Source: a virus. Taken from it: 64,000 bases of DNA. Positions 15,859 through 19,314 of the stretch are shown one piece after another. The notes beneath the pieces are model-generated. The model did no database searches and was not told the DNA's origin. It worked only from the letters and a program-made list of their open reading frames with translations. Within the stretch, counting starts at the first letter, position 1; every line of letters begins with the position of its first letter. The translations under genes were made by a program, and so were the position numbers. Where the stretch lies: positions 1 through 64,000 of the IMG/VR virus record IMGVR_UViG_3300032893_000004, one strand, 5' to 3'.

Positions 15859-16000
15859 GTTTTCCTCCTCTTATTAGTATCATACCATGATTCATGCGAC
15901 GCCTGAGATCGCTTACTCTGCAGCGTTCCCCGGAAGAGTGAATCAGCTTGACCGGTCTCATCCCCATCGCTCGCATGAAGAGATCTACCAGCCACTTCAC
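15785..16000 (-). CDS. possible small protein
   Basis: GTGA overlap with 15997 stop, but overlaps next gene. Confidence 0.4.
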   Translation of the reverse strand: MKWLVDLFMRAMGMRPVKLIHSSGERCRVSDLRRRMNHGMILIRGGKHEKVQRDEADAGASRNSAKTDRRT

Positions 16001-18249
16001 GACGGATCCGGCCCGTAGATGTAGACCACGTCGGACTGCGGCGACGCGTTCGGAAGCGTGGAATCTCCGGCGTTACCCCAACCTTCGTCGTTCGGGTAGA
16101 TTATGATGATCTCGACGTTGACTCCGGCTGCGATGATCGACTCGATGATCTGCTGAGCATAGATCCTGCCGTTCGCGGTGCCGGTCACGAAGAAGCTGTA
16201 GTCCGATCCGTCGAGCGCTGGGGTGTAAGCCTGCGTAGCCGATATCAGAGTCACATCCTCGCCGATCTCGTGGTCGAACTGAAACCGATAAGCCGTATCC
16301 ATGATGAGCGTCGTGATCGTGCCGGCTACGATCGGCGTCGACAGGCCGGTCGTCTCGAACGCTATCTGCGATGTCGTATTGTTGAAGGTGTACACGTTCA
16401 GCGATGGTGTAGAAGTTACGGTCCACGAGCCGTTGAAGTGCAGCGTCCCGGTGATGAATACTTCCTGTCCTACTACAAGACCGTGCGGTCCGTCCGTCGT
16501 GACTGTCGCGGTGTTTCCGTTCTGGGAGATGGTCTCGATGATGACCGCTTCAGCCGAAGTCGAAGACTGAGCGGCTAGGTACGTCACCGGCGATTCCTGG
16601 TTGTCGCCGTTGAGCGAGAACAGCAGCTGTCCTTCCGCGTTCGGGAGCTGGCCCTGCACCTGGAGGGTCGACAGATTCTGGCCTGCTACGATCGCCTGTC
16701 GAAGCGTGACGTACTGAGACGTGAGAGTGTAGTTCGCGGTCGGATCCACCATGTACGCGCCCAGAAACGGGTTAACCGGGTCGTCTTCCAGCAAGATTCC
16801 TACCACCACGCCGACAACTTGAGTACTGAATACCTGACCAAATTGGTTAGGTACTCCGGTGATGCCGTGAGGAGTGGTCGTCTGAACGGTCGTAAACCCT
16901 TGTTCCCTGAAGATATCCTGGATCGTGAACGTGTTCGACCCGACAGTCAGCGTACCGCCCGAGCCGGACACGTCGTACCCGTCCTGAGCGTACCTGATCG
17001 TGAGAGGGTTCACCACTTGGATCTGAGCCGACGGGACAGTAACCGAGCCGAACGATCCGTTCAGCTCCTGCGACGTGTAGAGAAGGTGAGTGTGAGCTGA
17101 CCCGATCAGGCTGCGCTCTACTACCTGAGTAGACGCGGGCATGTATATCTTCAGCACGCCGTCGGCCGGCTCGAAGGCCAGAGCGTATCTCACCTGAGAA
17201 TACGCTGTGTTCTTGTACGGTAGGAAGAACTTCAGATCGGAGTACAACGCCTGCGTCAGCGTGATAGAGTAGTATGTCGGCGGCGAATTGGCTGGAGGAG
17301 TTGTGTTCGGCGGTATCGAAGCTAGCTGGATCGGACCTGCGAACTCAGGCACTTGTATCTCGAAGTATCCAGCCGAGGGGTTCGGAGTCGGCTGGCACGG
17401 CGAGGCTGCTGTGACGGTGAACGTCCCGTAGAAGCCGGCGTCCTGGAACTGCTCGCCGTAGATCATGACTGAGTCGCCGGGCAACACGAACGACAGAAGC
17501 GGCTGCGGACCGCCGTTCCACGAGAACCGGTACGTGTCGCCGAGATTTCGCGTGATCTGCCATACCGTCGTGTTCGAAGGCAGCATGGTCGGGCGTATGG
17601 TCGGGAACTCAAGCTCGTTCTGGATCGTCCCGCCGACTATCTCGACCAGCGAGTACGGCCCGCGAGCGCCACCGAAGATCTGAACGTACTCGTCGCCGGT
17701 GTCGAAGTCGGTGTACACCTGCGCGTACCCGTCGGATCCGAGAGATGCTATGTAGCGAGAGATCACGTCGACGATCTCTTCGGCGGTCGCCGCCGACGGA
17801 TCCAGAAACTCGTCTCCTACCAGTGTCAAGATATTGGTCACACCATTTTCCAGCACGAATCGGAGGTCGTCGCCTGCCTTGAACGAGTACGGCGCAGCTA
17901 CGCCGGAGATGGTGGTAGCTCGGGTTGCCTGGTCGCCGTAGAAGGCTGCAAGCACGGCGTGGATCGCATCCGTGATCAGCTTCTCTTGGACGATCGTGAT
18001 ACCCATCTCGCTGAACGCGAAGTCGGCCATGCCTAAGTCGCCAGGTCTGACGACGCCCTTCGCGGCGAGCAGCTGGTCTAGGTAGACGCCGGAGCTGGTC
18101 GAGATCGTCAGCTGGTCGGTGACGGCTACGGACAGCTGATCCTGCGCTTCGAGCTGGTCAGAGATGGATTCGAAGAATGCCTGCGCGTTCGGCCCGTCTA
18201 CGAAATCAGAGATAAATTGTCGGAATTGTTGATATCTTGAGAGAGCCAC
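15997..18249 (-). CDS. baseplate wedge protein, P2 gpI-like N-terminus (750 aa)
   Basis: STSSGVYLDQL..KGVVRP..D N-terminal motif, AAGV C-terminal motif, FCCH-like repeats. Confidence 0.7.
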   Translation of the reverse strand: MALSRYQQFRQFISDFVDGPNAQAFFESISDQLEAQDQLSVAVTDQLTISTSSGVYLDQLLAAKGVVRPGDLGMADFAFSEMGITIVQEKLITDAIHAVLAAFYGDQATRATTISGVAAPYSFKAGDDLRFVLENGVTNILTLVGDEFLDPSAATAEEIVDVISRYIASLGSDGYAQVYTDFDTGDEYVQIFGGARGPYSLVEIVGGTIQNELEFPTIRPTMLPSNTTVWQITRNLGDTYRFSWNGGPQPLLSFVLPGDSVMIYGEQFQDAGFYGTFTVTAASPCQPTPNPSAGYFEIQVPEFAGPIQLASIPPNTTPPANSPPTYYSITLTQALYSDLKFFLPYKNTAYSQVRYALAFEPADGVLKIYMPASTQVVERSLIGSAHTHLLYTSQELNGSFGSVTVPSAQIQVVNPLTIRYAQDGYDVSGSGGTLTVGSNTFTIQDIFREQGFTTVQTTTPHGITGVPNQFGQVFSTQVVGVVVGILLEDDPVNPFLGAYMVDPTANYTLTSQYVTLRQAIVAGQNLSTLQVQGQLPNAEGQLLFSLNGDNQESPVTYLAAQSSTSAEAVIIETISQNGNTATVTTDGPHGLVVGQEVFITGTLHFNGSWTVTSTPSLNVYTFNNTTSQIAFETTGLSTPIVAGTITTLIMDTAYRFQFDHEIGEDVTLISATQAYTPALDGSDYSFFVTGTANGRIYAQQIIESIIAAGVNVEIIIIYPNDEGWGNAGDSTLPNASPQSDVVYIYGPDPS

Positions 18250-18264
18250 TGTTCACCTATTAGA

Positions 18265-18391
18265 GGCGAGACCGGCTGGACTACCCAACACCTCCGCTAA
18301 CCCGGTTTCTTGGCGGGCTCTGCCGCGCCTGGATCGATCGGCACCGGACGGGCGGTAGCCTCTCCAGAACGGGCTATTGAGCTACGGTCTC
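18265..18391 (-). ncRNA. remodelled tRNA-like RNA (127 nt)
   Basis: Acceptor GAGACCG/CGGTCTC+G+CC; TA; D-stem GCTC/GAGC with large two-hairpin insert; T-stem GTTGG/CCAGC with 5-nt loop. Confidence 0.7.
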
Positions 18392-18399
18392 TTTAATTG

Positions 18400-18408
18400 A
18401 AGATTAGG
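18400..18408 (-). promoter_or_regulatory. putative late promoter motif CCTAATCTT
   Basis: 8 nt upstream of the 5' G of the tRNA-like RNA. Confidence 0.7.
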
Positions 18409-18410
18409 GT

Positions 18411-18476
18411 CCGACTCCGACCGTGTGAACCCGCTGTGTACAGCGTTTTTAAGATTCAAGCCCCAGTCGGAGTCGG
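18411..18476 (-). ncRNA. end-paired hairpin RNA candidate
   Basis: 11-bp perfect terminal IR CCGACTCCGAC/GTCGGAGTCGG plus internal stems. Confidence 0.45.
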
Positions 18477-18490
18477 CGTAAAAGATAAAA

Positions 18491-18605
18491 ATAGTTGAGG
18501 ACCCATACAAAACTCGGTCGACGTACCGTTTACGAAAAAAGGGACTCGCCGGACATGGCACTACCCAATCGTCTACCTGGGCTATAAGAGCGTCACCTCA
18601 ACTAT
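18491..18605 (-). ncRNA. end-paired multi-stem RNA candidate
   Basis: 10-bp terminal IR ATAGTTGAGG/CCTCAACTAT; internal GCTC..TAGCCC..GGGTA..GAGT. Confidence 0.5.
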
Positions 18606-18618
18606 CCAAAACCAAAAA

Positions 18619-19048
18619 TGGTGGAACTGGCGGGAATCGAACCCGCGTCCATAAGAAGCTCCGATGCCAGTCTACACGCGTAGCCCTGCATATTTATCGT
18701 CTCCGGGCTAAGACTAGGGCGACCGGCTAAGGTCACCTCCACCACCCCGTATTTTTCAACGACTACGGGAAAGAGCCGGACTGCCGTTTTTCGTTCCCAG
18801 TTCGGCGACTGGGTTCCGCCTGATTTATCGTGGTGCGGCTGCGCTTCCACTATCGCATCTGGGTTACAGTCTGCTGCGAGAGACCGCCGATTCTGCCTTC
18901 TGGACTTCCTCGGTCCTTACCGCCGTTTTTAGGCAGCGGCTTGGAATTCGTATTCGTTGTCGAATACTGTTTGGGCTTTTTACGTGGCCAGCCCACCACG
19001 GCGTGCGTAACATCTTCGCTGATCCCATGTCGAAGCCAGATCAGTCCC
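18619..19048 (-). ncRNA. ssrA: tmRNA (430 nt), tag peptide (A)DNEYEFQAAA at 18961-18929
   Basis: 5' GGGACTGATCTGGCTTCGAC; 3' GACGCGGGTTCGATTCCCGCCAGTTCCACCA; G3-U wobble; tag ORF ending Ala-Ala-Ala-TAA. Confidence 0.95.
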
Positions 19049-19054
19049 ATCTAA

Positions 19055-19063
19055 GAGATTAGG
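19055..19063 (-). promoter_or_regulatory. putative late promoter motif CCTAATCTC
   Basis: 6 nt upstream of tmRNA 5' end. Confidence 0.7.
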
Positions 19064-19080
19064 CTAGAATGTGAAAGTTG

Positions 19081-19314
19081 TCAACCGAGAATATCGTCCA
19101 TCGCGTCGGCAACCTTGGGAAGATCGTCGTAGTAGACCTCCTCGTACACGGCTCCGGAAAGCTTGTCGAGCTTGGCGACCAGATCGCCCTCGGCGATGAC
19201 CTTGACCTTCACACCGTTGACTCCGCCTTTAGTATGAGCGTCCGTGATCCATTTCGGATACTCGGGCGTCTGAATCTCGACTACTAGAGTAACTATTCTA
19301 CCGACGTTGCTCAT
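19081..19314 (-). CDS. hypothetical protein
   Basis: ATGA overlap chain. Confidence 0.7.
   Translation of the reverse strand: MSNVGRIVTLVVEIQTPEYPKWITDAHTKGGVNGVKVKVIAEGDLVAKLDKLSGAVYEEVYYDDLPKVADAMDDILG

Follow-up and report, generated by a model that had tools for sequence, protein, structure and literature searches.

A conserved RNA of probable tRNA descent in a late-gene leader of an uncultured ~155-kb phage

The tRNA genes of phages are as a rule regarded as codon supplements or as substitutes for tRNAs that are cut by host defences. The M3 RNA induced by phage phi80 is said to be a classical RNase P substrate, and YrlA, reportedly a tRNA-like domain carried on a Ro-binding stem, is said to be known from some phages too. 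RNA species I and II of phage T4, which are non-tRNA stable RNAs, are placed in its tRNA gene region by a map legend (PMC2330249). In mascRNA/MEN-beta (Rfam family RF01684) and in the tRNA-like units of murid herpesvirus 68, a tRNA-shaped module sits in a longer transcript and tRNA-processing enzymes set the ends of both products; modules of the mascRNA type are CCA-ended and non-aminoacylated.

The window analysed here, a stretch of 64,000 nucleotides, opens an IMG/VR virus record with a length of 155,057 bp and a completeness of 96%. Its minus strand carries, at positions 18265-18391, a tRNA-like element of 127 nt (counting G73-CC), which can be likened to T4 species I and II and to phi80 M3 by description, there being no Rfam family for them. 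All are phage-encoded, have tRNA-like paired ends and do no decoding, and all presumably mature through host tRNA enzymes, but the present element forms part of a late structural gene's leader, not of a tRNA cluster, and bears an arm of ~53 nt in its D loop. Its likeness to the mascRNA and herpesvirus modules is one of proposed mechanism only. Those modules are eukaryotic or belong to an animal virus, stand at the 3' end of non-coding products or upstream of them and have a normal T loop, unlike the element. YrlA is likewise a non-coding RNA that mimics tRNA, but its T and D loops are canonical and the element has no long Ro-binding stem.

The letters of the element and its division in tRNA register, as given in a preliminary description made from the DNA alone (acceptor stem, TA link, D stem, arm with a 9-nt loop, T stem and G-CC end), agree with our reading. 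In the list below, which follows the direction of transcription, the 87% and 64% relatives are the two related phages introduced further on.

18619-19048, minus strand: neighbouring tmRNA gene (called by ARAGORN; Rfam score 128.5 bits), with a promoter TTGACA-17-TAATCT at 19056-19084
18424-18429, minus strand: -35-like hexamer TTCACA (5/6 match), 17 nt upstream of TAATCT
18400-18408, minus strand: promoter motif CCTAATCTT, which includes the -10-like TAATCT, 8 nt upstream of the element
18385-18391, minus strand: 5' strand of the acceptor stem, GAGACCG, paired with 18268-18274 (7/7 pairs Watson-Crick)
18382-18379 and 18320-18317, minus strand: D stem, GCTC with GAGC, preceded by a 2-nt TA
18322-18374, minus strand: extra arm inside the D loop, ~53 nt (element nt 18-70), missing from the homologue in the 64% relative
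18355-18374, minus strand: hypervariable 20 nt within the extra arm (element nt 18-37), 6/20 identical between the window and the 87% relative
18294-18316, minus strand: former anticodon arm, CCGCCAA-GAAACCGGG-TTAGCGG, in which a loop of 9 nt, GAAACCGGG, is closed by a 7-bp stem that has one mismatch
18275-18289, minus strand: T arm, GTTGG-GTAGT-CCAGC, a 5-bp stem and a 5-nt loop without the T-loop consensus, 100% identical in the 87% relative
18265-18274, minus strand: 3' strand of the acceptor stem, CGGTCTC (18274-18268), with G73 at 18267 and CC at 18266-18265
18247-18258, minus strand: Shine-Dalgarno (SD) sequence AGGTGA and GTG start of the late gene (15997-18249; 750-aa product)

The former anticodon arm and the T arm are separated by a variable loop, AGGT. 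The GTG start (18249) lies 15 nt 3' of the element, and the distance from element to SD is 7-8 nt in all three phages that carry the element. No terminator-like site was found on the same strand between the element and the 750-aa gene, which counts for the element being part of the leader of a late transcript. The 750-aa product matches nothing in Pfam or PHROG; the gene is assigned to the late tail module by context only, and its earlier designation as a baseplate gene goes further than this. Two more structured stretches, neither of which matches Rfam, occupy the gap between the tmRNA and the element (18411-18618, minus strand). The first is a branched RNA with a closing stem of ~12 bp at about 18491-18607, and the second is a 13-bp hairpin at about 18411-18476, which abuts the promoter of the element and includes its -35-like hexamer.

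The element is uncatalogued and belongs to no Rfam family. On the window and the whole genome, ARAGORN makes a single call, the tmRNA at 18619-19048, and passes over the element. Rfam yields no match to the element at gathering thresholds, nor at E<=10 on a 181-nt slice (18240-18420), and the Rfam tRNA model, run genome-wide at E<=1, touches only the end of the tmRNA. Such a weak or absent database signal had been foreseen. With at least 29 bits (the curated threshold of RF00005) or a call by a tRNA finder as the mark of a tRNA, neither the element nor its homologue in the 64% relative, at 23.3 bits, qualifies.

The element shares with canonical tRNA (RF00005) the register of the cloverleaf, namely a 7-bp acceptor stem, the 2-nt U8-A9 link, a 4-bp D stem, a 5-bp T stem and N73-CC(A). 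The 3' end reads CCT in the window and CCA in both relatives, so that N73-CCA is encoded in two of the three carriers and CC in all three. It differs from canonical tRNA in its loops and in the added 53-nt arm. The elbow nucleotides (T54-Psi55-C56 and A58 in the T loop, G18-G19 in the D loop) are absent, the T loop being GUAGU in the window and GUUGGCAA in the 64% relative. In place of a 7-nt anticodon loop there is one of 9 nt, which reads GAAACCGGG in the window (A at position 33) and GUAACCGGG in the 87% relative (U at that position); a 7-nt loop with U33 is present solely in the 64% relative (CUUGUAA). The preliminary description was thus right that the T-loop consensus is missing and that no anticodon can be assigned.

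Other classes of RNA do not account for the element either. The tmRNA families (RF00023 and the permuted RF04321) do not cover it, and sub-threshold matches to permuted tmRNA stop at 18455. YrlA gives no Rfam match at E<=10, and there is no Ro60/TROVE gene in the genome. The mascRNA family RF01684 does not match the element; its one match, of 16.5 bits and at chance level, falls on the tRNA-like domain of the tmRNA. An attP site is not indicated, for the element has no match to the 3' segment of a host tRNA. A search of the genome for genes of Ro60, a CCA-adding enzyme, RtcB and an integrase found none. The 19-mer of the T arm was sought as an exact match in IMG/VR and in 185,579 species genomes; it gave chance matches only, in an unrelated AT-rich contig and, for the species genomes, two in coding-like sequence. 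A scan of IMG/VR for a pattern joining the promoter and the D arm returned four matches, all by chance, and BLAST with the element as query detected no second copy and no significant complementary target, either in its own genome or in any of the loci compared. Elements of this kind are overlooked by standard annotation (ARAGORN, Rfam) and come to light when gene order and conservation are compared.

The comparison is based on the 750-aa protein, which has a graded series of homologues. The closest relative, L002, is identical in DNA to L007 and L027, and its downstream protein is 87% identical in amino acids to that of the window. Its contig begins at nt 6 of the element, and the first 5 nt and the promoter are therefore missing. 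Both the JGI and the ENA assemblies of this relative (L002:1, L007:1, L027:1) break at this same nucleotide, and the upstream RNA island may be polymorphic or repeated in its population.

At four-fold degenerate sites of the adjacent gene, 58.5% (202/345) differ between the window and the 87% relative, and the next intergenic region is scarcely alignable and contains a 51-nt indel. The element, set against this background, is identical at 98 of 122 positions, at 92 of 102 when the hypervariable 20-nt stretch is left out, and at all of the final 29 (29/29). Such conservation next to a gene so changed and a scrambled intergenic region argues for strong purifying selection, and the uneven pattern of identity (6/20, 92/102, 29/29) is incompatible with a decaying pseudogene. 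In the former anticodon arm, the segment AACCGGG of the loop and the TTAGC that follows it are unchanged, and pair 2 of the stem, C-G in the window, is U-A in the relative; several G-C pairs of the window become G-U. The scrambled intergenic region 3' of the 750-aa gene has a conserved island of its own, TGAAT.ATGGTATGATA.TAATAAGAGGAGG (15859-15900, minus strand, in the window; L002:2540-2576), which resembles a sigma-70-type -10 box with an SD for the next gene and is unlike the CCTAATCT type of promoter described below.

The more distant relative, L003 (64% amino-acid identity), has an 81-nt sequence between the same promoter motif and the AGGTGA-start of the orthologous gene. The minimum-energy fold of this short form is a perfect cloverleaf. 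In its anticodon arm a stem of 5 bp closes the 7-nt loop CUUGUAA (anticodon UGU), with U33 and R37, and A73-CCA is encoded; the D loop is 13 nt long and has no GG, and the T loop has 8 nt. The short form aligns across the whole Rfam tRNA model with 23.3 bits (E=0.005). The homology of the element in the window to this form, which BLAST does not link to it, rests on position, on architecture and on two short identical blocks, GTAGCTCAA and GGTGTTGG; MAFFT misaligned the short and long forms.

When the 21 stem pairs of the window are set against the short form, 12 are identical, one is changed on one side and eight on both, and all 21 are paired in the 64% relative. Three of the double changes are in the acceptor stem, which has one pair changed on one side as well and in which all changed pairs still pair; two are in the T stem and two in the anticodon stem, one of the latter filling the mismatch of the window's stem. 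The eighth, also in the anticodon stem, replaces G-C by U.G. Pairs that persist through double changes indicate that the structure is maintained and not decaying, so the earlier judgement that this is no decaying tRNA holds on two counts, purifying selection in the closer relative and retained pairing in the more distant one. The acceptor, T and D stems and the CCA are common to the short and long forms and the anticodon arm is not shared, which fits a role in processing better than that of an anticodon-directed decoy.

Folding by itself says less. The z-score of the element is -1.9, and a relaxed scan for cloverleaves gives 25 matches in 463 kb, nine of them in this genome, counting the element and one overlapping pair. 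The cloverleaf shape is thus barely beyond chance, and it is the conservation in relatives that leads us to accept the element as real. The minimum-energy fold of the element in the window is a rod (-55.8 kcal/mol, compared with -45.4 to -50.5 kcal/mol for the cloverleaf); as eight of its pairs are broken in the 87% relative, the rod is not conserved and was rejected.

With the cloverleaf core enforced, the insert in the D loop folds into one long irregular arm in both the window (-50.5 kcal/mol) and the 87% relative. The two hairpins drawn for this insert in the preliminary description amount to -45.4 kcal/mol in the window, the first of them is broken in the 87% relative, and the drawing was given up in favour of the better-folding single arm. 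The pair that closes the arm is G-C in the window and A-U in the relative. In these models no single wiring of the arm carries over cleanly from one phage to the other, because the 5' strand of the arm is the hypervariable stretch; the TAGCCC motif, considered as a conserved feature, falls in this stretch and was discarded. The hypervariable segment (18355-18374, minus strand) has diverged at a neutral-like rate within an RNA that is otherwise 90% identical, and its length is kept. It is most simply a fast-evolving strand of a helix, and possibly a segment that determines specificity. A further model has CGGG of the 9-nt loop, which may pair with CCCG at the tip of the arm over 4 bp, a match at chance level by itself. 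Deletion of the insert in silico, which was claimed to restore a canonical D arm, gave zero ARAGORN calls over 96 combinations of boundaries, relaxed threshold included.

The promoter motif 8 nt upstream of the element is genuine and genome-wide. CCTAATCT occurs nine times in the window, always on the minus strand (1.2 copies expected), and 17 exact copies are found in the genome, all on the coding strand and most of them 1-39 nt ahead of start codons. Throughout the phage group, AT-rich members included, this motif stands ahead of the orthologous gene. In relatives without the element (L004, L005, L008/L019, L020 and L021) it is found 9-11 nt from the ATG. A quick maximum-likelihood tree unites the three carriers in a single clade (99% SH-aLRT). 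Since the carriers are monophyletic and the element-free relatives keep the promoter directly before the start, the simplest history suggested by these sequences is one insertion of a tRNA gene into the late leader in the common ancestor of the three. An insertion into the leader would mean that the promoter belongs to the downstream gene, so the motif once described as the element's own is not private to it and is that gene's late promoter. Among the 17 CCTAATCT sites, only those of the element (TTCACA, 5/6) and of the tmRNA (TTGACA, 6/6) have a -35-like hexamer at 16-18 nt, and the other 15 score 3/6 or less. In both composite promoters (tmRNA, 19056-19084; element, 18401-18429; minus strand) the hexamer is followed by a 17-nt spacer and by TAATCT inside CCTAATCT, which suggests that these two can also be read by unmodified host polymerase. 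In relatives, a sigma-r4-like gene occurs close to the locus; no ortholog of it was detected in this genome.

Relatives show a hot spot for RNA genes in the slot that precedes the orthologous late gene. A 224-nt RNA at L019:1760-1983, flanked by two CCTAATCT motifs, has no Rfam match, and further RNAs lie in the slot at L020:about 1870-1965, L021:1306-1390 and L021:416-806. The types met with in relatives include a four-way junction with a 12-bp closing stem behind a TATAAT box, a hairpin RNA of ~85 nt and a tmRNA with the tag GNEYQERMAA; the RNAs other than the tmRNA have no Rfam match. Two relatives at ~50% have odd, initiator-like tRNA-Met genes (L010:38-125 and L040:595-673, both plus strand) in both of which the anticodon loop is CUCAUAA, 1x72 is a mismatch, the end is A73-CCA and the T loop departs from the consensus. 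At this locus, the gene of L010 comes directly after CCTAATCT, and ARAGORN finds it at relaxed threshold only; that of L040 scores 30.6 bits on the Rfam tRNA model. The canonical tRNAs of relatives (Met, Asn, Ala) are located elsewhere and have no late promoter motif ahead of them; none of them qualifies as a Thr progenitor of the element.

We have little doubt that the element is a real, conserved, tRNA-derived and non-decoding RNA in a late leader. Judged from a comparison of three distinct element sequences, one of which (that of the 87% relative) is missing its first 5 nt and promoter, it is most likely a non-decoding, tRNA-derived processing cassette or small RNA. That this maintained element is excised from the late transcript by host tRNA-processing enzymes is a fuller statement, to which, taken as a whole, we would give an even chance. 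The option of a processing or regulatory leader, one of several offered in the preliminary description, fits the comparative anatomy best, the promoter of element-free relatives being directly before the start codon.

The course of events could have been as follows. A tRNA gene would have inserted once, in the common ancestor of three related uncultured phages of ~155 kb, downstream of the late promoter CCTAATCTT and ahead of the ribosome-binding site of the gene that opens a late tail module. The sister lineage would have kept an 81-nt near-tRNA with its UGU anticodon loop and encoded A-CCA. In the lineage of the window, the D loop would have gained the arm of ~53 nt, and the anticodon arm would have turned into a 7-bp stem with a 9-nt loop. 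Transcription probably starts a few nucleotides from the first acceptor base, so that the element would form the 5' end of the late transcript. The 12-bp helix of acceptor and T stems, ending in N73-CC(A), would then be handled by the host enzymes of tRNA maturation, with RNase P acting on any 5' leader and an endonuclease, trimming and CCA repair following at the 3' side. This would yield two products, a small tRNA-like RNA that is stable and CCA-ended and an mRNA whose short leader is about that of the element-free relatives. The elbow nucleotides of tRNA are a normal point of contact for RNase P, RNase Z and the CCA-adding enzyme, and since the T and D loops of the element have none of these nucleotides, its efficient processing is not guaranteed. 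Moreover, a plain processing signal needs no loops that are 100% conserved, which implies an added, sequence-specific function in the lineage of the window. Loops conserved this perfectly point to a specific partner that the released RNA, or an uncleaved leader, may also bind.

Two alternatives deserve attention, although we consider both doubtful. In the first, which overlaps with excision by host enzymes and differs from it in the target of selection, the mature RNA is itself the selected product and processing merely its route. It would act in trans as a tRNA mimic, being a decoy or inhibitor of a host tRNA-directed defence nuclease or sensor, or a ligand of a tRNA-binding protein. The preliminary description leaned towards this kind of role and named EF-Tu or a synthetase as the protein that might be bound. 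The complete conservation of the loop and distal-arm sequences, well past the needs of a signal made of helices only, speaks for such a role, as do the retention of CCA or CC, an RNA-gene-type promoter with a -35-like hexamer that only the tmRNA shares, the position in an RNA-gene island adjoining the tmRNA, and the other small structured RNAs at this locus in relatives. On the other hand, no target can be identified, the genome has none of the genes for Ro60, RtcB or a CCA-adding enzyme, and the family is tiny, with three phages. The anticodon-like loop resembles that of no tRNA and is wholly different between the lineages (a UGU loop in the 64% relative, 9 nt here), which makes a decoy for a single anticodon nuclease unlikely as the shared function. 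An extension of this first alternative, which we regard as less probable still, would make the excised RNA a new class of phage-made, CCA-ended tRNA mimic that acts in trans, alongside the phage tmRNA, on host tRNA-directed defence or on the translation and rescue machinery. Its invariant 'anticodon' and distal-arm loops would kiss (CGGG with CCCG) or grip a host factor, and the 20-nt segment would tune specificity.

The second alternative, on a par with a trans-acting mimic, is that the element is not excised and works in cis as a 5' leader. Its paired 5' end, from about +1, would shield the late mRNA from 5'-end-dependent decay, or the structure would tune the loading of ribosomes at the SD 7-8 nt downstream. 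The spacing of the promoter, which predicts a start a few nucleotides from the paired 5' end, is consistent with this, and so are the constant distance between element and SD in 3/3 phages and the strong AGGTGA SD of the carriers, several element-free relatives being almost leaderless. However, a 5' hairpin would suffice for such a task, and the cloverleaf, with its 7+5-bp coaxial helix and an N73-CCA retained across long divergence, and the invariant loops would all be superfluous. Furthermore, inspection revealed no pairing of the element with the SD or start that is conserved.

That the element is an eccentric tRNA which does work, overlooked by standard finders, is very unlikely. The case for it comes from the 64% relative, with its canonical 5-bp/7-nt arm, U33, UGU, R37, A73-CCA and 23.3 bits, and from the odd tRNAs of other relatives (the relaxed-threshold tRNA-Met of L010 and that of L040 at 30.6 bits). 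The element in the window has instead a 9-nt loop, an unconserved U33, a 5-nt T loop and a 53-nt arm in the D loop; it obtains no Rfam tRNA score and no ARAGORN call, even with the insert removed, and the form of the 64% relative likewise has no G18/G19 and no T-loop consensus. Least likely of all is a decaying tRNA pseudogene or a leftover attP copy of the 3' end of a host tRNA, an idea suggested by a tRNA-like yet scoreless sequence in which, as attP cores would have it, the 3' half is the better conserved of the two, but contradicted by conservation well above neutral, by pairs kept through double changes, by an acceptor stem that is complete and not a mere 3' half, by the lack of an integrase in the genome and by a T-arm 19-mer that is not in 185,579 species genomes except for the two chance coding matches.

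The locus presents the case of a tRNA gene, taken up into a late-gene leader, that has been under strong selection while shedding every decoding feature and growing a new arm. If the element is excised, it would be an example from a bacterial virus of tRNA punctuation, in which the shape of a tRNA sets the ends of an mRNA and of a small RNA, and the 81-nt and 127-nt forms would represent two stages along one path of remodelling.
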